The position numbers and the translations under genes are program-made. DNA of 44,450 nt from Escherichia phage vB_EcoP-101101UKE1: the sequence record MZ234012.1, one strand, 5' to 3'. This document shows positions 988 to 39,782 of this stretch, in pieces. The notes under the pieces are model-generated. The model was given only the letters and a program-made list of their open reading frames with translations. It was not told the DNA's origin and did not search any database. Each line of letters begins with the position of its first letter. Position 1 is the first letter of the stretch.

Positions 988-3615
988 ATGCAAGACCTAC
1001 ACGCTATTCAACTTCAACTTGAAGAAGAAATGTTTAACGGTGGTATCCGTCGCTTTGAAGCGGACCAACAACGCCAGATTGCATCCGGTAATGAATCAGA
1101 CACGGCATGGAATCGCCGCTTATTGTCCGAGTTAATCGCGCCAATGGCTGAAGGTATTCAGGCTTATAAGGAAGAGTACGAAGGCAAGCGCGGTCGTGCA
1201 CCACGTGCATTGGCTTTCATTAACTGCGTAGAAAATGAAGTGGCAGCGTATATCACGATGAAGATCGTAATGGATATGCTTAACACTGATGTAACCTTGC
1301 AAGCTATCGCTATGAATGTAGCTGACCGCATCGAAGACCAAGTGCGCTTCAGTAAACTAGAAGGCCATGCAGCTAAATATTTTGAGAAGGTCAAGAAGTC
1401 ACTTAAGGCAAGTAAGACTAAATCATATCGCCATGCGCACAACGTAGCGGTCGTGGCTGAGAAGTCAGTAGCTGACCGTGACGCTGATTTCTCTCGCTGG
1501 GAAGCGTGGCCTAAAGATACCTTGCTACAAATTGGGATGACCTTGCTTGAAATCTTAGAGAATAGCGTATTCTTCAACGGGCAACCTGTCTTCCTCCGCA
1601 CCTTGCGCACTAATGGCGGCAAACATGGTGTTTACTACCTACAGACTAGTGAACACGTAGGTGAGTGGATAACTGCATTTAAAGAACATGTAGCGCAACT
1701 TAGTCCAGCCTATGCACCTTGCGTTATTCCTCCGCGTCCGTGGGTATCACCCTTTAACGGTGGGTTTCATACTGAGAAAGTAGCAAGCCGTATTCGTCTG
1801 GTAAAAGGCAATCGTGAGCACGTCCGCAAGCTGACCAAAAAGCAAATGCCAGCGGTTTACAAGGCTGTTAACGCTTTGCAGGCTACTAAGTGGCAGGTTA
1901 ATAAAGAGGTTTTACAGGTTGTGGAGGACGTTATACGTCTAGACCTCGGCTATGGTGTACCTTCCTTTAAACCACTCATCGACCGTGAGAACAAGCCAGC
2001 TAATCCGGTGCCGTTAGAGTTCCAGCACCTGCGAGGCCGTGAACTGAAAGAAATGCTTACGCCGGAACAATGGCAAGCCTTTATCAACTGGAAAGGTGAA
2101 TGTACTAAGCTGTACACCGCTGAAACTAAGCGCGGAAGCAAATCGGCGGCAACCGTTCGCATGGTTGGTCAGGCCCGTAAATATAGCCAGTTCGACGCAA
2201 TCTACTTCGTGTATGCACTGGACAGCCGCAGCCGTGTATACGCGCAATCTAGCACACTCTCACCGCAATCAAATGACTTGGGCAAGGCCTTGCTCCGTTT
2301 TACCGAAGGGCAGCGTCTTGATAGCGCTGAGGCGCTTAAGTGGTTTTTGGTGAACGGGGCGAATAACTGGGGTTGGGATAAGAAAACTTTTGACGTGCGC
2401 ACCGCTAACGTGCTGGATGGCGAATTTCAAGACATGTGCCGCGACATTGCAGCGGATCCGCTGACCTTCACTCAATGGGTAAATGCCGACTCCCCTTACG
2501 GCTTCCTTGCATGGTGCTTTGAATATGCGCGTTATCTGGATGCACTGGATGGAGGCACGCAAGACCAATTCATGACGCACCTCCCAGTCCATCAAGATGG
2601 TAGTTGTTCTGGTATCCAGCACTACAGTGCTATGCTACGCGATGCAGTAGGTGCGAAAGCAGTAAACCTTAAGCCCTCTGACTCTCCTCAAGATATTTAT
2701 GGTGCCGTTGCGCAGGTAGTAATTCAGAAGAATTATGCATACATGAATGCAGAGGATGCGGAAACCTTCACTTCTGGCAGCGTGACTTTAACAGGTGCGG
2801 AGCTGCGTAGTATGGCTAGTGCGTGGGATATGATAGGAATCACTCGCGGCCTGACCAAAAAGCCCGTAATGACACTACCTTATGGCAGCACACGTCTAAC
2901 CTGCCGTGAGTCAGTGATTGATTATATCGTTGATTTAGAAGAAAAAGAGGCCCAACGGGCTATTGCGGAAGGGCGTACCGCCAATCCTGTACACCCTTTT
3001 GATAATGACCGTAAGGACAGCCTGACACCTAGCGCAGCTTATAACTATATGACAGCTTTAATCTGGCCTTCTATTTCGGAAGTGGTTAAAGCTCCTATAG
3101 TGGCAATGAAAATGATTCGTCAGCTTGCACGTTTCGCAGCTAAAAGGAATGAAGGCTTAGAGTACACCTTGCCTACTGGCTTCATCTTGCAACAAAAGAT
3201 AATGGCGACAGATATGCTCCGCGTATCTACTTGCTTGATGGGAGAAATCAAGATGAGTCTACAGATTGAAACGGACGTAGTGGATGAAACGGCTATGATG
3301 GGCGCTGCTGCCCCTAACTTTGTGCACGGTCATGATGCCAGTCACCTTATCTTAACGGTCTGCGACCTTGTTGATAAAGGGATTACATCTATCGCAGTAA
3401 TTCATGATTCTTTTGGCACTCATGCAGGTCGCACCGCAGACCTACGTGATAGTCTAAGGGCAGAAATGGTGAAGATGTATCAAGGCCGTAACGCTCTGCA
3501 AAGCCTGTTAGATGAGCATGAAGAACGCTGGTTAGTAGACACCGGAATCCAAGTGCCAGAGCAAGGAGAGTTTGACCTTAACGAAATCTTAGTATCTGAC
3601 TATTGCTTCGCATAA
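988..3615 (+). CDS. single-subunit DNA-dependent RNA polymerase (T7/SP6 type), 875 aa
   Basis: RBS aggagt 7 nt upstream. Contains the motif B-like stretch [11 protein letters not shown] and motif C IHDSFGTH. Size matches SP6-type RNAPs (~875 aa). Confidence 0.95.
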
Positions 3616-3622
3616 TATTAAT

Positions 3623-3655
3623 AGGCCATTCCTTCGGGAGTGGCCTTTTCTTTTA
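3623..3655 (+). terminator. rho-independent terminator after the RNAP gene
   Basis: Hairpin aggccattcc-TTCG-ggagtggcct (10-bp stem with one G-U pair, UUCG tetraloop) followed by tttcttttt. Confidence 0.75.
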
Positions 3656-3688
3656 CCTACTACCGGTAACATTTCATTAACATAAAGT

Positions 3689-3704
3689 GTCTCACATGTG
3701 AGAC
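3689..3704. promoter_or_regulatory. conserved 16-bp palindrome GTCTCACATGTGAGAC (copy 1 of 6)
   Basis: Perfect inverted repeat immediately upstream of the phage promoter at 3707. Confidence 0.6.
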
Positions 3705-3706
3705 TT

Positions 3707-3729
3707 ATTTACCGGACACTATAGGATAG
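3707..3729 (+). promoter_or_regulatory. phage RNAP promoter (ATTTACCGGACACTATAGGATAG)
   Basis: Matches the recurrent element ATTTACYGGACACTATAGAAG found about 12 times in the window, which is close to the SP6 promoter ATTTAGGTGACACTATAGAAGAG. Confidence 0.75.
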
Positions 3730-3870
3730 CCGTCGGAGACGGGAAAGAAAGGGAAGATAAAGGATATAAAAGGAAGTAATAGGTATTAAAGGTTATATAG
3801 GTTATCTAGGAATACCTATTACCTTCTCCCTTCCTCTTATTACTACTTAGAGGAAGGGCAGATCTAGGTT

Positions 3871-3886
3871 GTCTCACATGTGAGAC
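3871..3886. promoter_or_regulatory. conserved 16-bp palindrome GTCTCACATGTGAGAC (copy 2 of 6)
   Basis: Perfect inverted repeat immediately upstream of the promoter at 3892. Confidence 0.6.
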
Positions 3887-3891
3887 TTCGT

Positions 3892-3914
3892 ATTTACCGG
3901 ACAGTATAGATAAG
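3892..3914 (+). promoter_or_regulatory. phage RNAP promoter variant (ATTTACCGGACAGTATAGATAAG)
   Basis: Consensus-like element with a C-to-G change in the CACTATA core (CAGTATA), upstream of the gp1.1-like gene. T7 likewise has promoters directly before gene 1.1. Confidence 0.55.
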
Positions 3915-3939
3915 ACTAACTTACTTTGGAGATTTAACC

Positions 3940-4068
3940 ATGCGTAACTTTGAGAAGATGACCCGTAAAGCTAACCGTTTTGACATGGAAGAAGGGCAGA
4001 AGAAAGGCAAGAAGCTGAATAAACCTGTCCGTGACCGTGCATCTAAACGCGCTGCGTGGGAGTTCTAA
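3940..4068 (+). CDS. T7 gp1.1-like small basic protein (42 aa, MRNFEKMTRKANRFDMEEGQKKGKKLNKPVRDRASKRAAWEF)
   Basis: Short ORF below the six-frame track cutoff. N-terminus MRNFEKMT and overall length and basic character match my recollection of T7 gene 1.1, and it sits directly after the RNAP gene as in T7. Confidence 0.6.
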   Translation: MRNFEKMTRKANRFDMEEGQKKGKKLNKPVRDRASKRAAWEF

Positions 4069-10391: not shown

Positions 10392-10949
10392 ATGAATGAA
10401 CTGAACACTAAGATGCTCAAGAAAGTTTATAATCTTGTATATAGTATCACGGGCCTACACTTCTACCCTGTAGGCGGTGCGGTTCGTGACACCCTGTACG
10501 GATTAACACCTAAAGACTATGATATGGTGTTGCCTGTAGGGTCTATGGCAGATTCTCAGGCGCACGAAATCATGGAAAATATCTCTGAAGAGATGGCAAT
10601 TATGGGATTTAGTACCAAACTCTACCAATCATACGGTATCAATTTAGGTTATGAAATCAACCCTACCTCTTTTCAGGCTATGTTCCTTAGCTGCATGAAA
10701 GTGCAGATGCGTAATTGCCAACTTGATTTGCTTCTTTCTAAGGCTGAAACCATCCAAGATCATGTACGTAAGCACGATTGCAATATGAATATGGTGTGGT
10801 TCGATGGTAAAGATATCAAGTGGGAGCACGGCGGTGTTACTCCTTTCGTTCCTGTGTTAGAGTTCAACCCTGACGGATGTGATCGTCGCATTGCTTACAT
10901 GGACAAGAAGCGCCATGAACTTATCCGTCACAAATTAATGCATCTTTGA
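10392..10949 (+). CDS. minimal Pol-beta-superfamily nucleotidyltransferase with CCA-adding-enzyme/poly(A)-polymerase head motif
   Basis: Motif VGGAVRDTLYGLTPKDYDMV (GGxVRD followed by DxD) matches the class II CCA-adding enzyme head signature. RBS ggagga 7 nt before ATG 10392. Protein is only ~185 aa. Confidence 0.6.
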   Translation: MNELNTKMLKKVYNLVYSITGLHFYPVGGAVRDTLYGLTPKDYDMVLPVGSMADSQAHEIMENISEEMAIMGFSTKLYQSYGINLGYEINPTSFQAMFLSCMKVQMRNCQLDLLLSKAETIQDHVRKHDCNMNMVWFDGKDIKWEHGGVTPFVPVLEFNPDGCDRRIAYMDKKRHELIRHKLMHL

Positions 10950-10970
10950 TTTACCGGACACTATAGAAGG
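10949..10970 (+). promoter_or_regulatory. phage RNAP promoter (ATTTACCGGACACTATAGAAGG)
   Basis: Consensus match. Confidence 0.75.
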
Positions 10971-11035
10971 AAGTCCTAGGTAATCTAGGTTTATAAGGTA
11001 GTATAGGTAATTAAGTAAATATAGGAGATATAAAC

Positions 11036-11413
11036 ATGTCTATGGTAACTACTCTGGTATTTGTAGCTCAATACTTTCGTGGTCTGGCTAATAAGTTCAA
11101 GTCCAAGGCTATCAAAGCTATTGAGTCTCGCATCGAGGCAGTACAGGCAGAGCAAGTTAAAGTTGAAGAACATCGTAGTTCTCAAATGATTGACTGCCAT
11201 AACCGCTACTATGCATCTCGTGATGACCTTAATGCACGCCAAGTCAAAGAGGTTGAAGAGATGCTGGCACGTCACCAGCAAGAGCGCGACAGCCTGAAAG
11301 CTGAATTTGAAGAGAACAAGGCATCCATCGCCCTTGTACATCAAGCCGCATCTGACAACCTGAAGAAAGAGATTGTTATGCTGGAAATTGAGTTAGACAA
11401 CCTGACCAAATAA
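11036..11413 (+). CDS. hypothetical membrane-anchored coiled-coil protein (125 aa)
   Basis: RBS aggag. N-terminal hydrophobic segment MSMVTTLVFVAQYF followed by heptad-like charged sequence. Confidence 0.45.
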   Translation: MSMVTTLVFVAQYFRGLANKFKSKAIKAIESRIEAVQAEQVKVEEHRSSQMIDCHNRYYASRDDLNARQVKEVEEMLARHQQERDSLKAEFEENKASIALVHQAASDNLKKEIVMLEIELDNLTK

Positions 11414-11434
11414 TTACTGGACACTATAGAACAA
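11412..11434 (+). promoter_or_regulatory. phage RNAP promoter (AATTACTGGACACTATAGAACAA)
   Basis: Consensus match. Confidence 0.7.
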
Positions 11435-11490
11435 TAGGTCGGCTTAGTTCGGCCTATGATTGTGTAGTGTAACAATAGGAGACTAAATAA

Positions 11491-33308: not shown

Positions 33309-33503
33309 ATGATTAACTCCGAACTGGTAGATAGTGGTGTGAAGCTTGCGCCACCTGCACTCGTATCAGGTGGGTACTTCCTCGGTATCAGTTGGGATAA
33401 TTGGGTGTTAATAGCAACATTCATTTATACCGTGTTGCAAATTGGGGACTGGTTTTATAATAAGTTCAAGATTTGGAGGGAGAAGCGTGAGCGTACACAA
33501 TAA
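33309..33503 (+). CDS. class II holin (T7 gp17.5-like)
   Basis: 64 aa. FIYTVLQIGDW resembles T7 gp17.5 IAYTVVQIG. RBS taaggagg. Confidence 0.65.
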   Translation: MINSELVDSGVKLAPPALVSGGYFLGISWDNWVLIATFIYTVLQIGDWFYNKFKIWREKRERTQ

Positions 33504-33786
33504 ACATGCAGCTACAGAGGATGAGGTTGGCATTCTGCATGGTGCTATTACCAAAATCTTCAATAAGAAAGCACAGGCAATACTGGACACTATAGAAGAA
33601 GACCCTGATGCAGCATTACATTTAGTGTCTGGTAAGGATATTGGTGCGATGTGTAAGTGGGTTCTTGATAACGGCATTACCGCCACACCTGCTGCACAGC
33701 AGGAAGAGTCCAAGTTATCTAAGCGCCTCAAGGCTATCCGAGAGGCATCCAGTGGCAAGATTATTCAGTTTACAAAAGAGGAGTGA
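33487..33786 (+). CDS. putative terminase small subunit (assigned by position)
   Basis: GTG start after RBS ggaggg, located between the holin and the HNH/large terminase genes as for T7 gene 18. No motif recognised. Confidence 0.4.
   Translation: MSVHNKHAATEDEVGILHGAITKIFNKKAQAILDTIEEDPDAALHLVSGKDIGAMCKWVLDNGITATPAAQQEESKLSKRLKAIREASSGKIIQFTKEE
33579..33600 (+). promoter_or_regulatory. phage RNAP promoter variant (AATACTGGACACTATAGAAGAA)
   Basis: Core ACTGGACACTATAGAAG is perfect. It lies inside the putative small terminase gene, upstream of the HNH and large terminase genes. Confidence 0.55.
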
Positions 33787-33787
33787 T

Positions 33788-34231
33788 ATGCATAGATGGT
33801 GTGAATCTCAAGGTTATACCATCTTACCTTCTGGTGTCATCCTTTCAAAGGGTGGCACCCCTCTCAAACCATTCAAGGCGGGTAGGGGTTATTTAGCAGT
33901 TAAAATTAAAAATAAAGAAGGTAGATGGCGTAATGTCTATGTTCATCAATTAGTGGCTTATAAGTATTTACCTAAAACTAATAATGAAGTAAACCACAAA
34001 GACGGCGATAAGCACAACAATGATGTTAGCAACTTGGAGTGGGTAACAAGAAGCGAGAATAACTATTTAAAATGCAATGGAAATGATAGGAGTACCTTAA
34101 ATAGCTATTTAGCAAGATTAAAAGATTGCTTCTTGCAAGGTAAGGGTGTAGCAGAAACCGCTAGACTTACTGGTAAAAGTGAACCAAGAGTTTCTTCTCT
34201 CTTTAAGGAGTGGCGAAATGGCAAAGGCTAG
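33788..34231 (+). CDS. HNH homing endonuclease
   Basis: HNH motif VNHKDGDKHNNDVSNLEWVTRSEN. AT-rich compared with its neighbours. Start ATG 33788 with RBS aagaggag; the track ORF opens at 33641. Confidence 0.8.
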   Translation: MHRWCESQGYTILPSGVILSKGGTPLKPFKAGRGYLAVKIKNKEGRWRNVYVHQLVAYKYLPKTNNEVNHKDGDKHNNDVSNLEWVTRSENNYLKCNGNDRSTLNSYLARLKDCFLQGKGVAETARLTGKSEPRVSSLFKEWRNGKG

Positions 34232-36116
34232 AGAATCACAGGCAGAGGCATTAAAGCGGTGGGAAAACCTTAAAGAACTACAAGACACTTTTAAATATAC
34301 AGCGGAAGGTTTGCTTCTCTTTGCAGATACAGTTATTCATAACTTAATTGCAGGCAACCCTCATCTGATTCGTATGCAGGCTGATATCTTGAAGTTCCTA
34401 TTTTACGGACACAAGTACCGCCTCATCGAAGCGCCTCGTGGTATCGCTAAGACAACACTATCAGCAATCTATACGGTATTCCGTATTATTCATGAACCGC
34501 ATAAGCGTATCATGGTTGTGTCCCAAAACGCCAAGCGAGCAGAGGAAATCGCAGGTTGGGTAGTTAAAATCTTCCGTGGCTTAGACTTTCTTGAGTTTAT
34601 GCTGCCGGATATCTACGCTGGGGACCGTGCATCCGTTAAGGCGTTTGAGATTCATTACACCCTACGTGGTAGTGATAAGTCTCCTTCTGTATCCTGTTAC
34701 TCAATCGAAGCAGGTATGCAGGGTGCTCGTGCTGATATTATTCTAGCGGATGACGTAGAGTCGATGCAGAATGCTCGTACGGCAGCGGGCCGTGCCTTGC
34801 TTGAGGAACTGACTAAGGAGTTTGAATCTATCAACCAGTTTGGGGATATCATTTACCTTGGTACACCTCAGAACGTAAACTCTATCTACAACAACCTACC
34901 TGCTCGTGGTTACTCTGTTCGTATCTGGACTGCGCGTTACCCTTCAGTAGAGCAAGAGCAATGTTATGGCGACTTCCTTGCACCTATGATTGTTCAAGAT
35001 ATGAAGGACAACCCAGCACTTCGCTCAGGGTACGGGTTGGATGGTAATAGTGGTGCACCTTGTGCCCCTGAAATGTATGATGATGAAGTCCTGATTGAGA
35101 AGGAAATCTCTCAGGGTGCTGCTAAGTTCCAGCTTCAGTTCATGCTTAACACTCGCATGATGGATGCTGACAGATACCCATTACGCCTGAACAATCTAAT
35201 CTTCACCTCGTTTGGTACAGAGGAAGTCCCTGTGATGCCTACGTGGAGTAATGATTCCATAAACATCATTGGTGATGCACCTAAGTATGGTAACAAGCCT
35301 ACGGATTTCATGTACAGACCTGTAGCTCGCCCATATGAATGGGGCGCTGTCTCCCGCAAGATTATGTATATTGACCCTGCGGGTGGTGGTAAGAACGGAG
35401 ATGAGACGGGTGTAGCCATCGTATTCCTGCACGGCACATTCATTTATGTGTATCAGTGCTTTGGTGTACCTGGCGGATACCGAGAGTCGTCCCTGAATCG
35501 CATTGTGCAAGCCGCAAAGCAGGCGGGTGTTAAAGAGGTATTCATTGAGAAGAACTTTGGTCATGGCGCGTTTGAGGCGGTAATTAAGCCGTACTTTGAA
35601 CGAGAGTGGCCTGTAACTCTGGAAGAGGATTACGCCACCGGACAGAAAGAGTTGCGTATCATTGAGACGCTGGAGCCGCTCATGGCAGCACATAGGCTTA
35701 TCTTCAATGCAGAGATGGTGAAGTCAGACTTTGAGTCGGTACAGCACTATCCGCTTGAACTACGCATGTCCTACAGTCTTTTCAATCAAATGTCGAACAT
35801 AACGATTGAGAAGAACAGCCTCCGGCACGATGACCGCCTAGACGCCCTGTATGGCGCTATACGGCAATTAACTTCTCAGATAGACTATGACGAGGTTACA
35901 CGGATTAATCGCCTCAGAGCGCAGGAGATGCGCGATTACATCCATGCTATGAATACACCTCATTTACGCAGGGCAATGCTATATGGAGATTACGGTACTG
36001 AGCGAAGAGTGACCAACACTTCCGTAGCGATGCAGCAGCGAGTTTACGGGCAGAACTACCGAAATAAATCGGCAAGCAGAAATACACTTTCTGCAAGGAT
36101 TTCAAGGACTTATTAA
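34218..36116 (+). CDS. terminase large subunit (T7 gp19-like)
   Basis: Walker A-like PRGIAKTT and Walker B-like ILADDVE. Probable start ATG 34218 (RBS aaggag); the track ORF opens at 34179. Confidence 0.9.
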   Translation: MAKARESQAEALKRWENLKELQDTFKYTAEGLLLFADTVIHNLIAGNPHLIRMQADILKFLFYGHKYRLIEAPRGIAKTTLSAIYTVFRIIHEPHKRIMVVSQNAKRAEEIAGWVVKIFRGLDFLEFMLPDIYAGDRASVKAFEIHYTLRGSDKSPSVSCYSIEAGMQGARADIILADDVESMQNARTAAGRALLEELTKEFESINQFGDIIYLGTPQNVNSIYNNLPARGYSVRIWTARYPSVEQEQCYGDFLAPMIVQDMKDNPALRSGYGLDGNSGAPCAPEMYDDEVLIEKEISQGAAKFQLQFMLNTRMMDADRYPLRLNNLIFTSFGTEEVPVMPTWSNDSINIIGDAPKYGNKPTDFMYRPVARPYEWGAVSRKIMYIDPAGGGKNGDETGVAIVFLHGTFIYVYQCFGVPGGYRESSLNRIVQAAKQAGVKEVFIEKNFGHGAFEAVIKPYFEREWPVTLEEDYATGQKELRIIETLEPLMAAHRLIFNAEMVKSDFESVQHYPLELRMSYSLFNQMSNITIEKNSLRHDDRLDALYGAIRQLTSQIDYDEVTRINRLRAQEMRDYIHAMNTPHLRRAMLYGDYGTERRVTNTSVAMQQRVYGQNYRNKSASRNTLSARISRTY

Positions 36117-36136
36117 TTACTGGACACTATAGAAGG
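36115..36136 (+). promoter_or_regulatory. phage RNAP promoter (AATTACTGGACACTATAGAAGG)
   Basis: Consensus match, overlapping the terminase stop codon. Confidence 0.75.
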
Positions 36137-36272
36137 AAGGCCCAGATAATAAGAGAAAATAATAGGTAATATATAGGTTAACCTAGGTTATATAGGTATG
36201 CCTTAGTATGGGTGTACTCTGTACACCCTATTCCTTACTACCTTACTATATTTACATAATAGGAGAGAGACA

Positions 36273-36551
36273 ATGGCTAATGATTATAGTAGTCAACCAT
36301 TAACAGGTAAGTCTAAGAGAAAGCAGGTACAACCTGTAAGTGAAGCACTAATGCTTCCGGTAATCTCAAAAGAGGAAGCTAGTAAGAAAATCAATGTTAT
36401 TAATGATGCCACCAAATCAGGTAAACAGAAAGGGGCCATGGTGTGCCTTGAAGTGGAAGATGGCGTATTGAAGATTGCTATCGCGGTTGATGGCAAAGAA
36501 GATTCAGAGTGGAAGTTAGTGACAGTGGAACCAACTGTTACCCCAGTTTAA
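36273..36551 (+). CDS. small protein, paralog 1 (92 aa)
   Basis: RBS ggagagag. Shares SGKQKGAMV...IAVA with the next ORF. Confidence 0.5.
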   Translation: MANDYSSQPLTGKSKRKQVQPVSEALMLPVISKEEASKKINVINDATKSGKQKGAMVCLEVEDGVLKIAIAVDGKEDSEWKLVTVEPTVTPV

Positions 36552-36569
36552 GAGAAGGAGGAAGATTAC

Positions 36570-36863
36570 ATGGCTAAATATGGTACTACAGGTTCTGTTA
36601 CTGGTCAGGCTTTTCGAGTAAAAGCAGTACAAACTATTGCAACGGCAATCCCGATGCCTGTTGTTAAAGAAGCAGACCTTAAGGATAAAGATCACCCTAT
36701 CAACATCAAACACCTGTCAGGTAAGCAGAAAGGTGCAATGGTTGCTGTTGAGAGAGGTGACACAACCATGCATATTGCTGTTGCACGTGGTAGTGAACCA
36801 ACAGACTCTTGGGATGTAACTGGTATGGAATCGTCAGCCATTACTCTAGCAGGTGGAGAATAA
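36570..36863 (+). CDS. small protein, paralog 2 (97 aa)
   Basis: RBS gaaggagg. Shares the SGKQKGAMVAVE...IAVA core with 36273..36551. Confidence 0.5.
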   Translation: MAKYGTTGSVTGQAFRVKAVQTIATAIPMPVVKEADLKDKDHPINIKHLSGKQKGAMVAVERGDTTMHIAVARGSEPTDSWDVTGMESSAITLAGGE

Positions 36864-37207
36864 TGCTTAACAAATACTTCAAGCGCCGTGAGTTCGCTTG
36901 CCGTTGTGGGTGCGGTACATCCACTGTTGATGCTGAATTACTACAGGTAGTCACAGATGTGCGTGAGCACTTTGGTTCTCCTGTAGTTATCACTTCTGGG
37001 CACCGCTGTGCTAAGCACAATGCTAATGTAGGAGGAGCTAAGAACTCCATGCATCTTACTGGTAAGGCTGCTGACATTAAGGTACGAGGCATCTTACCTT
37101 CTGATGTACATAAGTATCTTACTGATAAGTACCAAGGCAAATATGGGATTGGTAAGTATAACTCCTTTACTCATATTGATGTACGTGACTGGTGTGCACG
37201 ATGGTAG
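36863..37207 (+). CDS. endolysin, peptidase M15-type (L-alanyl-D-glutamate peptidase)
   Basis: Motif SGHRCAKHNANVGGAKNSMHLTGKAADI (zinc-binding H...D...H of M15 peptidases). TAATG-coupled start at 36863. Confidence 0.85.
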   Translation: MLNKYFKRREFACRCGCGTSTVDAELLQVVTDVREHFGSPVVITSGHRCAKHNANVGGAKNSMHLTGKAADIKVRGILPSDVHKYLTDKYQGKYGIGKYNSFTHIDVRDWCARW

Positions 37208-37315
37208 GTTGTGTTGCATGGTGTGAACGCATGGTTGCTAAGGCTTCAGAGGAAGGCAACTATGAAGATTGGCAGAACTACTCAACTTTATTAGCTCAAT
37301 GGAAAGGGAGATGCA

Positions 37316-37465
37316 ATGAAAAAGCTGTTCAAATCTAAGAAGGTTGTAGGTGCACTAGTTGCATTGGCAATTGCTCTTGTTTCTGTAGGTCTTGGTGTAG
37401 ACCTTGGCTCTGGCACGGAATCCTCTGTGACAGATGTGGTCTGCCAAGTGATCACCTGTGAATAA
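37316..37465 (+). CDS. small membrane protein (49 aa), possible holin or antiholin
   Basis: MKKLFKSKKVVGALVALAIALVSVGLGV has one TM helix. RBS gggag 6 nt upstream. Lies between the endolysin and the spanins. Confidence 0.35.
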   Translation: MKKLFKSKKVVGALVALAIALVSVGLGVDLGSGTESSVTDVVCQVITCE

Positions 37466-37679
37466 GTTTCTAGAAGTTCTGGCAGGTCTTATTGGCCTGC
37501 TTGTCTCTGCTAAGAAGAAACAAGAAGAGAAGGAGGCACAAAGTGAAGCGAATCATGTTAGTGACAACCCTTCTGATTGGTTCGCTGACCACTTCCGGGT
37601 GTCAGCAGGCGTTACCAGAGAAAGCAATGGTGAAACCTCTGAGGCCGACGCTGACGGAAGTTTACGAGGTAGACGATAA
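37458..37679 (+). CDS. putative i-spanin (Rz-like), unusually short
   Basis: N-terminal TM segment FLEVLAGLIGLLVSA. Contains the o-spanin start in the +1 frame. Confidence 0.35.
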   Translation: MNKFLEVLAGLIGLLVSAKKKQEEKEAQSEANHVSDNPSDWFADHFRVSAGVTRESNGETSEADADGSLRGRR

Positions 37680-37752
37680 GGTCTGCTTTAGTAAGCCTGA
37701 CGCTACAAAATTAGGTTTGTATATTCTTTCGCTAGAACGCGGATATAATTAA
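37555..37752 (+). CDS. putative o-spanin (Rz1-like outer-membrane lipoprotein)
   Basis: Lipoprotein signal MLVTTLLIGSLTTSGC with a lipobox Cys, then a Pro-containing mature region. Overlaps the i-spanin ORF out of frame. Confidence 0.55.
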   Translation: MLVTTLLIGSLTTSGCQQALPEKAMVKPLRPTLTEVYEVDDKVCFSKPDATKLGLYILSLERGYN

Positions 37753-37781: not shown

Positions 37782-37805
37782 ATTTACTGGACACTATAGA
37801 AGAGG
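37782..37805 (+). promoter_or_regulatory. phage RNAP promoter upstream of the tailspike genes (ATTTACTGGACACTATAGAAGAGG)
   Basis: Exact consensus. Confidence 0.8.
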
Positions 37806-37883
37806 TAAGATAGCGCCGTTCTTTTGAGCGGCCTATTACTAGCCAATCTTCATAGGGAGGGTTGGAAAGTAATAGGAGATAGC

Positions 37884-39782
37884 ATGGCTAAATTAACCAA
37901 ACCTAATACTGAAGGAATCTTGCATAAAGGACAATCTTTGTATGAGTACCTTGATGCGAGAGTTTTAACATCAAAGCCGTTTGGTGCTGTAGGTGACGCC
38001 GCTACTGATGATACGGAGGTTATAGCTGCTTCATTAAACTCTCAGAAAGCTGTCACAATCTCAGACGGTGTATTCTCTAGCTCTGGTATTAATAGTAATT
38101 ACTGTAACTTAGACGGTAGAGGTAGTGGGGTGCTAAGTCACCGTTCCAGTACAGGTAACTACTTAGTATTTAACAATCCACGTACAGGTCGCTTAAGTAA
38201 TATTACGGTAGAAAGTAATAAGGAGACTGATACAACTCAGGGACAGCAGGTATCTCTTGCGGGTGGAAGTGATGTTACTGTAAGTGACGTTAACTTCTCA
38301 AACGTTAAAGGTACTGGTTTCAGTTTAATCGCATACCCTAATGATGCGCCACCTGATGGACTTATGATTAAAGGCATTCGAGGTAGCTATTCCGGCTATG
38401 CTACTAATAAGGCAGCCGGATGCGTACTTGCTGACTCATCAGTTAACTCCCTCATAGATAACGTCATTGCTAAGAACTACCCTCAGTTCGGAGCAGTAGA
38501 GTTGAAAGGTACAGCCAGTTACAACATAGTCAGTAATGTTATAGGGACAGATTGCCAGCATGTAACTTACAACGGCACTGAAGGGCCAATAGCTCCTTCT
38601 AATAACCTTATCAAGGGGGTGATGGCTAATAACCCTAAGTATGCAGCGGTTGTTGCAGGCAAAGGAAGTACGAACTTGATCTCAGACGTGCTCGTAGGTT
38701 ACTCAACTTCTGATGCTAGGCAGGTTCATGGTGTTACCGTAGAAGGATCTGATAACGTCATAAATAATGTGCTTATGTCAGGATGTGATGGTACTAACTC
38801 TTTAGGACAAAGGCAGACTGCTACAATTGCACGCTTTATAGGTACAGCTAATAACAACTATGCGTCTGTATTTCCTAGCTACAGTGCTACAGGTGTTATT
38901 ACTTTCGAATCCGGCTCTACCCGTAACTTCGTAGAGGTAAAGCACCCTGGCAGGAGAAACGACCTTCTCAGTTCTGCTAGTACTATTGACGGTGCAGCTA
39001 CTATTGACGGCACTAATAATAGTAACGTAGTGCACGCACCTGCCTTAGGGCAGTACATAGGTAGTATGTCAGGTAGGTTCGAATGGCGGATTAAGTCCAT
39101 GTCACTCCCTTCAGGCGTTCTTACTTCTGCTGATAAGTACAGAATGCTTGGGGATGGTGCTGTATCATTAGCTTTAGGTGGGGGTACTTCTTCTCAAGTT
39201 CGCCTATTTACTTCTGATGGTACTTCTCGGACAGTGTCCCTCACCAACGGTAACGTGCGTCTTTCTACCAGTAGCACAGGCTATTTGCAGTTAGGTACTG
39301 ATGCAATGACCCCAGATAGTACTGGTACATACGCATTAGGTTCCGCCAGTCGAGCATGGTCTGGCGGTTTTACTCAAGCAGCATTCACTGTTACATCAGA
39401 TGCTCGGTGTAAAACAGAACCTCTTACTATCTCAGATGCCTTACTGGATGCTTGGTCTGAAGTTGACTTTGTGCAGTTTCAGTATTTGGATCGTGTTGAG
39501 GAGAAGGGTGCAGACTCAGCTAGATGGCACTTCGGTATCATCGCTCAGCGAGCTAAGGAGTCTTTCGAACGTCACGGTATAGATGCACATCGCTATGGCT
39601 TCTTGTGCTTCGACAGTTGGGATGATGTATACGAGGAAGATGCCAATGGCTCTCGTAAACTGATTACACCAGCAGGTTCCCGCTACGGTATTCGTTACGA
39701 GGAAGTGCTGATATTAGAGGCTGCGTTGATGCGGCGGACTATTAAGCGTATGCAGGAAGCACTAGCTTCCCTGCCTAAGTAA
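37884..39782 (+). CDS. tailspike 1: beta-helix depolymerase with C-terminal intramolecular chaperone (peptidase S74) domain
   Basis: N-terminal FGAVGDAATDDTEVIAA is pectate-lyase-like. C-terminal SDARCKTEP...WHFGIIAQRAKESFERHGIDAHRYGFLCFDSWDD matches the auto-cleaving chaperone domain of endosialidases, K5 lyase and the T5 L-shaped fiber. Start ATG 37884. Confidence 0.85.
   Translation: MAKLTKPNTEGILHKGQSLYEYLDARVLTSKPFGAVGDAATDDTEVIAASLNSQKAVTISDGVFSSSGINSNYCNLDGRGSGVLSHRSSTGNYLVFNNPRTGRLSNITVESNKETDTTQGQQVSLAGGSDVTVSDVNFSNVKGTGFSLIAYPNDAPPDGLMIKGIRGSYSGYATNKAAGCVLADSSVNSLIDNVIAKNYPQFGAVELKGTASYNIVSNVIGTDCQHVTYNGTEGPIAPSNNLIKGVMANNPKYAAVVAGKGSTNLISDVLVGYSTSDARQVHGVTVEGSDNVINNVLMSGCDGTNSLGQRQTATIARFIGTANNNYASVFPSYSATGVITFESGSTRNFVEVKHPGRRNDLLSSASTIDGAATIDGTNNSNVVHAPALGQYIGSMSGRFEWRIKSMSLPSGVLTSADKYRMLGDGAVSLALGGGTSSQVRLFTSDGTSRTVSLTNGNVRLSTSSTGYLQLGTDAMTPDSTGTYALGSASRAWSGGFTQAAFTVTSDARCKTEPLTISDALLDAWSEVDFVQFQYLDRVEEKGADSARWHFGIIAQRAKESFERHGIDAHRYGFLCFDSWDDVYEEDANGSRKLITPAGSRYGIRYEEVLILEAALMRRTIKRMQEALASLPK
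39406..39779 (+). other. intramolecular chaperone / peptidase S74 auto-processing domain within tailspike 1
   Basis: Begins at the conserved Ser of the SDARxK motif. Predicted self-cleavage immediately before this Ser. Confidence 0.7.

Follow-up and report, generated by a model that had tools for sequence, protein, structure and literature searches.

Genes 41 and 42 of a K1-5-like Escherichia phage are anciently diverged paralogs that most probably encode small structural proteins of the virion

The closest described relatives of the genes studied here belong to Klebsiella phage Kp7. In the Kp7 record (GenBank ON148527), the slot between the large terminase and the endolysin holds gp45 (88 aa), gp46 (88 aa), and gp47 (178 aa). 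Their label is 'minor capsid protein', extended for gp47 to 'minor capsid protein with Ig-domain'. These three proteins, along with gp32, were identified by mass spectrometry in visible bands cut from silver-stained gels of purified virions (10.1101/2024.05.19.594906, section 3.4). The Kp7 authors named all four 'minor capsid proteins', and the T7-like phages Kp9 and Kp11 lack them (10.1101/2024.05.19.594906). Presence in the virion is thus reported, and the place on the capsid is asserted. The Protein Data Bank (PDB) holds the major capsid protein of Kp7 (7y3t, seven chains). Among PDB chains of known sequence, none matches Kp7 gp45, gp46, gp47, or gp32, or the family profile built here, so the 'capsid' label is the depositors' assertion. 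Besides the Kp7 preprint, we found no structural or genetic study in the literature of K1-5 gp41/gp42, SP6 gp42-44, or their homologs.

More distant systems offer partial comparisons. Phage PhiM1 has an Autographiviridae capsid with two small decoration paralogs, alpha-claw and alpha-paw, which have a common anchor motif and a 5:2 ratio; one paralog has an extra arm, and the two occupy distinct lattice sites (PMC11440229). This pair is a precedent for paralogs that share out non-equivalent sites. The PhiM1 proteins are helical dimers at two-fold axes (PMC11440229), whereas the family described here is predicted to be beta-rich and its profile has no PDB match. Lambda gpD and the SHP protein of phage 21, trimeric decoration proteins of the beta-tulip type, are alike in their size of ~10 kDa and their flexible N-terminal arm. 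They serve as a working analogy only, for the probable trimer and the proposed three-fold sites of our pair on a T=7 capsid of the HK97 fold. T5 pb10, T4 Hoc, and the phi29 head fibre gp8.5 resemble the family in joining an N-terminal capsid anchor to an outward Ig-like or fibre module. They differ in that their sequences are unrelated to the anchor domain of this family and that the pair studied has no outward module. Both pb10 and Hoc bind hexamer centres as monomers, unlike the trimer we favour for this family. An Ig-bearing 'outer capsid protein' has been predicted in phage Arno160 (PMC7246868); its ORF45 is cited here as Ig-bearing, not as a family member.

We analysed a stretch of 44,450 nucleotides (the window) from Escherichia phage vB_EcoP-101101UKE1 (MZ234012.1), a Vectrevirus of the K1-5/SP6 group. 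Positions 36100-37300 share 99.5% identity with Escherichia phage vB-Eco-KMB47 and 92% with phage K1-5, and all close matches of this region are Vectrevirus or other SP6-like Autographiviridae of ~44 kb. The original prediction, made from the letters of the window, was of two adjacent ORFs of 92 and 97 aa, each with a strong ribosome-binding site, between the terminase and the endolysin. Both ORFs lie on the plus strand exactly where it had put them, AGGAG and AAGGAGG can be read upstream of them, and the flanking genes are confirmed by matches to PF22530 and PF08291. The features of the locus are as follows.

33442-33786, terminase small subunit (PF11123)
34179..36116, plus strand, T7-type terminase large subunit, the upstream neighbour (PF22530, E=1.6e-35)
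36123..36135, plus strand, putative SP6/K1-5-type late promoter core GACACTATAGAAG, just after the terminase stop
36210..36228, plus strand, perfect 8-bp stem with a 3-nt loop, GGGTGTAC-TCT-GTACACCC, in the 5' leader of gene 41, 3' of the promoter core
36261..36265, plus strand, Shine-Dalgarno AGGAG of gene 41, 7 nt before the ATG at 36273 (sequence reading)
36273..36551, plus strand, gene 41, type-A paralog, 92 aa, 9.9 kDa (ORF list)
36555..36561, plus strand, Shine-Dalgarno AAGGAGG of gene 42, 8 nt before the ATG at 36570 (sequence reading)
36570..36863, plus strand, gene 42, type-B paralog, 97 aa, 10.2 kDa (ORF list)
36863..37207, plus strand, Peptidase_M15_3 endolysin, the downstream neighbour (PF08291, E=4.9e-33; phrog_894, E=2e-44)

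The two ORFs are K1-5 genes 41 and 42 (RefSeq gp44 and gp45), which occupy the slot between the terminase large subunit and the endolysin in that phage as well. Both are real genes. Gene 41 has 104 homologous 90%-identity clusters and gene 42 has 109, and the long contigs among them are ~44 kb, as expected of phage genomes. Minus-strand ORFs that overlap the gene 41/42 region have no support. Compared with the orthologs of SP6, Kp7, K1-5, and RoP3a, the window genes have a dN/dS of ~0.2-0.5; the least-diverged pair, gp41 and its K1-5 counterpart, gives 0.82 from very few substitutions. Selection therefore appears purifying but relaxed, a pattern expected of exposed accessory structural proteins.

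The promoter core is a repeated element. Its 13-mer occurs in 8 exact copies in the window, all on the plus strand and several of them upstream of genes, and with up to two mismatches 16 sites are observed against 1.35 expected. By analogy with the known SP6-type consensus, the copy at 36123-36135 probably acts as a promoter for genes 41 and 42 and the lysis cassette. The stem at 36210-36228 was called 'terminator-like' by a consensus scan and is possibly an RNA processing or stability element. The stability of the gene 41 leader overall is not unusual (z=-0.35), and Rfam has no match in the gene 41/42 region including the leader. After the stem, at 36233-36248, stands a tandem repeat, CCTTACTA CCTTACTA.

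Other features of the neighbourhood were recorded alongside. An HNH_3 homing-endonuclease ORF (33641-34231, plus strand; PF13392, E=4e-11) lies between the small- and large-subunit terminase genes, which abut in K1-5 with no gene between them; on L006, a metagenomic T7-like contig, the equivalent place also holds an HNH_3 gene. The M15 endolysin is context and lies outside the paralog system. Downstream of it the lysis cassette (37192-37752, plus strand) holds a 48-aa ORF with no assigned function (phrog_1312), a 49-aa holin (phrog_4712), and a 73-aa ORF, probably the i-spanin (phrog_9219), in which an Rz1-like o-spanin (phrog_8971, lipobox LTTSGC) is embedded in another frame. Upstream of the terminase genes, at 33309-33503, lies a second holin gene, of the T7 type (PF10746). 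A tailspike ORF (37824-39782, plus strand) follows an exact phage promoter core at 37790-37802 and carries at its C-terminus an intramolecular-chaperone domain, Peptidase_S74 (PF13884, E=7e-14). The listed TTG start of this ORF probably lies too far upstream; translation from an internal ATG (MAKLTKPNTEG...) would give a product of 632 aa, the length of the first K1-5 tailspike.

Judged by sequence comparison, gp41 and gp42 are true paralogs. BLASTP aligns them with 34% identity across 87 residues (E=3e-14), and their Smith-Waterman score of 120 stands far outside chance (z=19 against 5000 shuffles with a mean of 26.4, sd of 4.9, and maximum of 56). Both match phrog_2725 (gp41, E=5e-38; gp42, E=5e-43). 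The common core noticed at the outset, SGKQKGAMV(C/A)(L/V)E...(K/H)IA(I/V)A, is seen in both proteins, as SGKQKGAMVCLE...KIAIA in gp41 and SGKQKGAMVAVE...HIAVA in gp42. Given the 87-residue alignment, the shuffle scores, and the common PHROG, the likeness is one of whole proteins and not of the SGKQKGAMV motif alone.

The pair had been read as a local duplication. The paralogy holds, but the duplication is neither recent nor local, because each copy has its own orthologous lineage. In a score matrix, window gp41 falls with Kp7 gp45 and SP6 gp42 (type A), and window gp42 with Kp7 gp46 and SP6 gp43 (type B). Type C consists of SP6 gp44 and the third gene (238 aa) of Raoultella phage RoP3a. Kp7 gp47 is also a third paralog, with no clear grouping with type C. 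Since each copy has a separate ortholog lineage and belongs to a large family, the duplication must be older than the divergence of the SP6-like phages. A search of all window ORFs with the family HMM (hmmsearch) found no third domain copy. In RoP3a, UTI89UKE2/3, fTuEco01, and other near relatives, a type-C gene of ~700 bp sits exactly between gene 42 and the endolysin, and in some relatives the third lineage bears a C-terminal extension. At 3229-3942 of the Raoultella phage vB_Ro_P3a locus (L002), the third paralog of ~238 aa consists of the family domain and a C-terminal part of ~140 aa. Among otherwise >92% identical Vectrevirus genomes, this gene is a clean indel of ~700 bp. The variable C-terminal part is ~30% identical between phage groups and has no Pfam match.

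The domain that defines the family is ~85 residues long. Neither protein matched a Pfam or NCBIfam family above threshold, and PDB sequence and profile searches gave no credible match; a short match of gp41 to Plexin-A2 (E=0.012) was set aside as chance. An alignment of 23 sequences has the invariant columns M1, T11, G12, P30, N45, S50, G51, K52, Q53, A56, A72, and W81, and gp41 and gp42 carry every one of them (T-G ... P ... N ... S-G-K-Q ... A ... A ... W). The family signature also includes a C-terminal (V/I)TP; gene 42 ends in ITLAGGE and not in VTPx.

A profile of both paralogs was searched against 1.84 billion cluster representatives (50% identity), which yielded 239 matches at E<=0.001 and 88 at E<=1e-10. 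Among the best 150 of the 239, 94 are short single-domain proteins. In 26 others, three tandem domains are detectable within a single chain of 260-320 aa. Two domains are detectable in 15 more, most of whose chains are also 260-320 aa long, and in 13 an N-terminal domain is followed by an extension. No chain among these 150 representatives has more than three copies. A word-index protein search with the three-domain alignment returned 6 proteins. The family is carried by 187 records of deposited phages (~190 genomes), and all of those listed are 38-47 kb. Three separate paralog genes occur in each of Kp7, SP6, RoP3a, and MGD2; a strict rule of three genes per genome was rejected, as the copy number ranges from 1 to 3. 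On the metagenomic T7-like contig L004, a fourth domain copy 3' of the three-domain gene (10855-11453) is split over two frames, with profile positions 15-48 in one and 49-85 in the following frame. A pseudogene with a frameshift, an error in sequencing, or programmed frameshifting could explain the split.

Some members bear additional modules. An Ig-like domain is found on Kp7 gp47 and P0291 (PF13927, E=2.5e-8 to 3e-7; also PF07679), a tail-needle knob of the Sf6 type on P0286 (PF16532, E=1.7e-30), and a tail-fibre-like motif on P0339. The Ig domain of Kp7 gp47 matches the 'Decoration protein' chains of 8zvi and 5lxk (E=6e-17 and 3e-16), which we take to be T5 pb10; a match to a T5-like entry, 'N5: decoration protein', fits this identity. 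Neither gp41 nor gp42 has an Ig match in Pfam, and the window pair is without an outward module. Fusion to the Ig-like and knob modules, which are typical of virion surfaces, counts in favour of a structural role.

Gene order points in the same direction. The family lies directly 3' of a T7-type large terminase gene wherever the context was examined (~12 Autographiviridae and similar contigs), including K1-5, Kp7, SP6, Vp670, MR4, Njord, PP99, phiEa1H, MGD2, and metagenomic contigs. At the sampled loci of Molineuxvirinae, Colwellvirinae, and Gajwadongvirus it always follows the terminase and usually precedes the endolysin. The three-domain genes of metagenomic T7-like contigs also come directly after the large terminase gene. 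At all loci examined the family thus keeps its place beside the late structural and packaging module, which likewise supports a structural role.

Predicted structures give a partial picture of the module. In the AlphaFold2 monomer of gp42 (mean pLDDT 64), residues 1-16 fall below pLDDT 50 and form a disordered N-terminal arm, and the core is a small four-stranded beta sheet. Such a model would suit a protein that gains order only once bound to its partner. An AlphaFold model of a three-domain member has a pLDDT of 69 and a pTM of 0.69 with 43 disordered N-terminal residues; that pTM, reached despite the disordered N-terminus, suggests packing of the three domains against one another. A Foldseek search of BFVD gave mostly uncharacterised family members, and other named proteins matched weakly. 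With models of moderate quality, the fold has no recognisable solved relative. Likeness to lambda gpD was not found when the family alignment was compared with gpD by hhalign (probability 0.04, E=0.9), with the gpD sequence checked against PDB 7vii and 1c5e.

The strongest pointer to function is orthology to Kp7 virion proteins. Window gp41 is 45% identical to Kp7 gp45 (E=8e-22), and gp42 is 49% identical to Kp7 gp46 (E=7e-20). Together with gp47, these are true homologs of the window pair with the invariant motif in common. Like the window proteins, gp45 and gp46 are small members of a paralog set in the slot between terminase and endolysin; Kp7 differs in having a third member with a C-terminal Ig-like domain. 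A role in virion decoration, one of two that had been suggested for the pair, gains support here, as the Kp7 orthologs in the equivalent slot are purified-virion proteins deposited under the name 'minor capsid protein'. The products of genes 41 and 42 are predicted to be small virion structural proteins, most probably on the outside of the T=7 head as decoration or minor capsid proteins.

We put forward the following scheme. Genes 41 and 42 would be transcribed late, from the phage-polymerase promoter directly after the terminase gene, and with this promoter and the strong ribosome-binding sites both proteins would be made in large amounts. Each would have a conserved flexible N-terminal arm of ~28 residues (TG..R.K.VQ....A...P.V), then a small beta-sheet domain with the invariant signature N....SGKQ..A...A......W. 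Three such domains would form the unit, as a homo- or heterotrimer. We argue for a trimer as the working unit because of the three domains per chain, the three-paralog sets of several phages, and the fusion to a knob that is obligately trimeric in the Sf6-type tail needle. A strict heterotrimer of three gene products cannot be general, since the window has two paralogs and the copy number varies. The trimer may dock on the lattice of the mature capsid, with three-fold or quasi-three-fold positions as the most plausible sites, and its arms would gain order there on the major capsid protein. In relatives the module would anchor outward add-ons such as the Ig-like domain, the TNF-like knob, or other beta domains, and the window pair would be the bare, anchor-only forms. 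An anchor docking on the major capsid protein lattice agrees with both the flexible, conserved arm and the modular additions at the C-terminus. That genes 41 and 42 encode abundant late capsid-surface proteins, assembled as trimers from anciently diverged paralogs, is in our judgement somewhat more probable than its negation.

The same module could instead serve as a trimeric anchor elsewhere on the virion (neck, portal, or tail), such as at the base of whiskers or auxiliary fibres, with the window pair as anchor-only forms or as plugs for unused sites. In P0339 and P0286 the domain precedes fibre- or knob-like parts, neighbouring genes in PP99 and MR4 are annotated 'tail needle knob', and Kp7 mass spectrometry gives presence in the virion and not location. 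Owing to the fibre-like C-terminal parts and a BFVD relative that is named 'tail fiber protein', such a location retains some probability, although we think it unlikely. The Kp7 authors and GenBank speak of capsid proteins, and SP6-like phages already have a dedicated spike tail adaptor (K1-5 gp37, Kp7 gp41). Proteins of 9-10 kDa that are visible as silver-stained bands also suggest more copies than the number of tail sites. The matching Ig domain says little either way, since it occurs on head-decoration and many Hoc-like proteins but also on whisker, tail-tube, and tail proteins. A different possibility, which we rate as distinctly unlikely, is that the proteins are non-structural late products, such as assembly or maturation chaperones or anti-defence or exclusion factors, and were carried over into the Kp7 virion preparation. 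Phage genes that are small, variable, and paralogous often serve counter-defence, and the fold of this family has no known relative. Carry-over would nonetheless have to account for three different family members in discrete gel bands from purified virions. The Ig-like and knob fusions are hallmarks of exposed virion proteins, and the fixed place at the end of the structural and packaging module, in every locus examined, is unlike that of mobile accessory genes. No PADLOC-type or other defence annotation emerged from the Pfam, NCBIfam, and PHROG searches.

The other role suggested at the outset was one in lysis, and it was not borne out. The TAATG overlap that prompted it is there (gene 42 TAA at 36861-36863, endolysin ATG at 36863-36865), the pair has a transcription unit in common with the endolysin, holin, and spanins, and the endolysin follows the family in many relatives. 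A regulator, antiholin, or endolysin partner is still very improbable. Neither protein has a transmembrane segment or lipobox; the maximum Kyte-Doolittle means over 19 residues are 1.47 and 1.12, with charged residues inside the segments. Their PHROG matches are phrog_2725 and PHROGs with no assigned function only, whereas the true holin and spanins downstream do match lysis PHROGs. The three-domain loci L004, L006, and L008 keep the terminase adjacency, and their next genes are small ORFs in which no endolysin domain was called. Where a third paralog is present, that gene and not gene 42 abuts the endolysin, and the orthologs are virion components. With the lysis role unsupported, the overlap is best read as ordinary compact packing of phage genes. 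The database name, acetyl-CoA acetyltransferase, is effectively refuted. Its sole basis is a label propagated over phrog_2725, SP6 genes 42/43, and K1-5 gp44/gp45. Thiolases have ~390 aa; these proteins have 92-97 aa, no thiolase match in Pfam or NCBIfam, and no enzyme among solved structures, and their invariant columns contain no conserved Cys or His of catalytic type.

Capsid-surface trimers, the reading we prefer, would be no surprise for the field, as small decoration proteins are common in tailed phages. The genes are already in databases, and homologs are already called minor capsid proteins. What appears to be undescribed is the definition of the domain family, the three-domain fused form, the use of the domain at the N-terminus to anchor Ig and knob modules, and the wrong annotation. 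The two genes and their homologs in ~190 deposited phage genomes are labelled 'hypothetical protein' or, wrongly, 'acetyl-CoA acetyltransferase'; small virion protein or minor capsid protein would be a name that can be defended. A bolder and rather doubtful extension is that the SGKQ module of ~85 residues is a structurally new, trimer-forming capsid anchor and display platform, wide in the Autographiviridae. Its paralogs, or three fused copies, would then make up pseudo-three-fold units whose chemically different subunits fit the non-equivalent quasi-three-fold sites of a T=7 head, the optional Ig, knob, or fibre add-ons would make the head adhesive, and gp41 and gp42 would be the minimal two-component version. 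K1-5/SP6-like phages are candidates for therapy, and capsid-surface proteins affect stability, immunogenicity, and adherence to mucus and surfaces. A small anchor that naturally tolerates C-terminal Ig, knob, and other domains would give these phages a ready display scaffold. As the domain has neither a Pfam entry nor a solved relative, one cryo-EM map could define a new family of decoration proteins.
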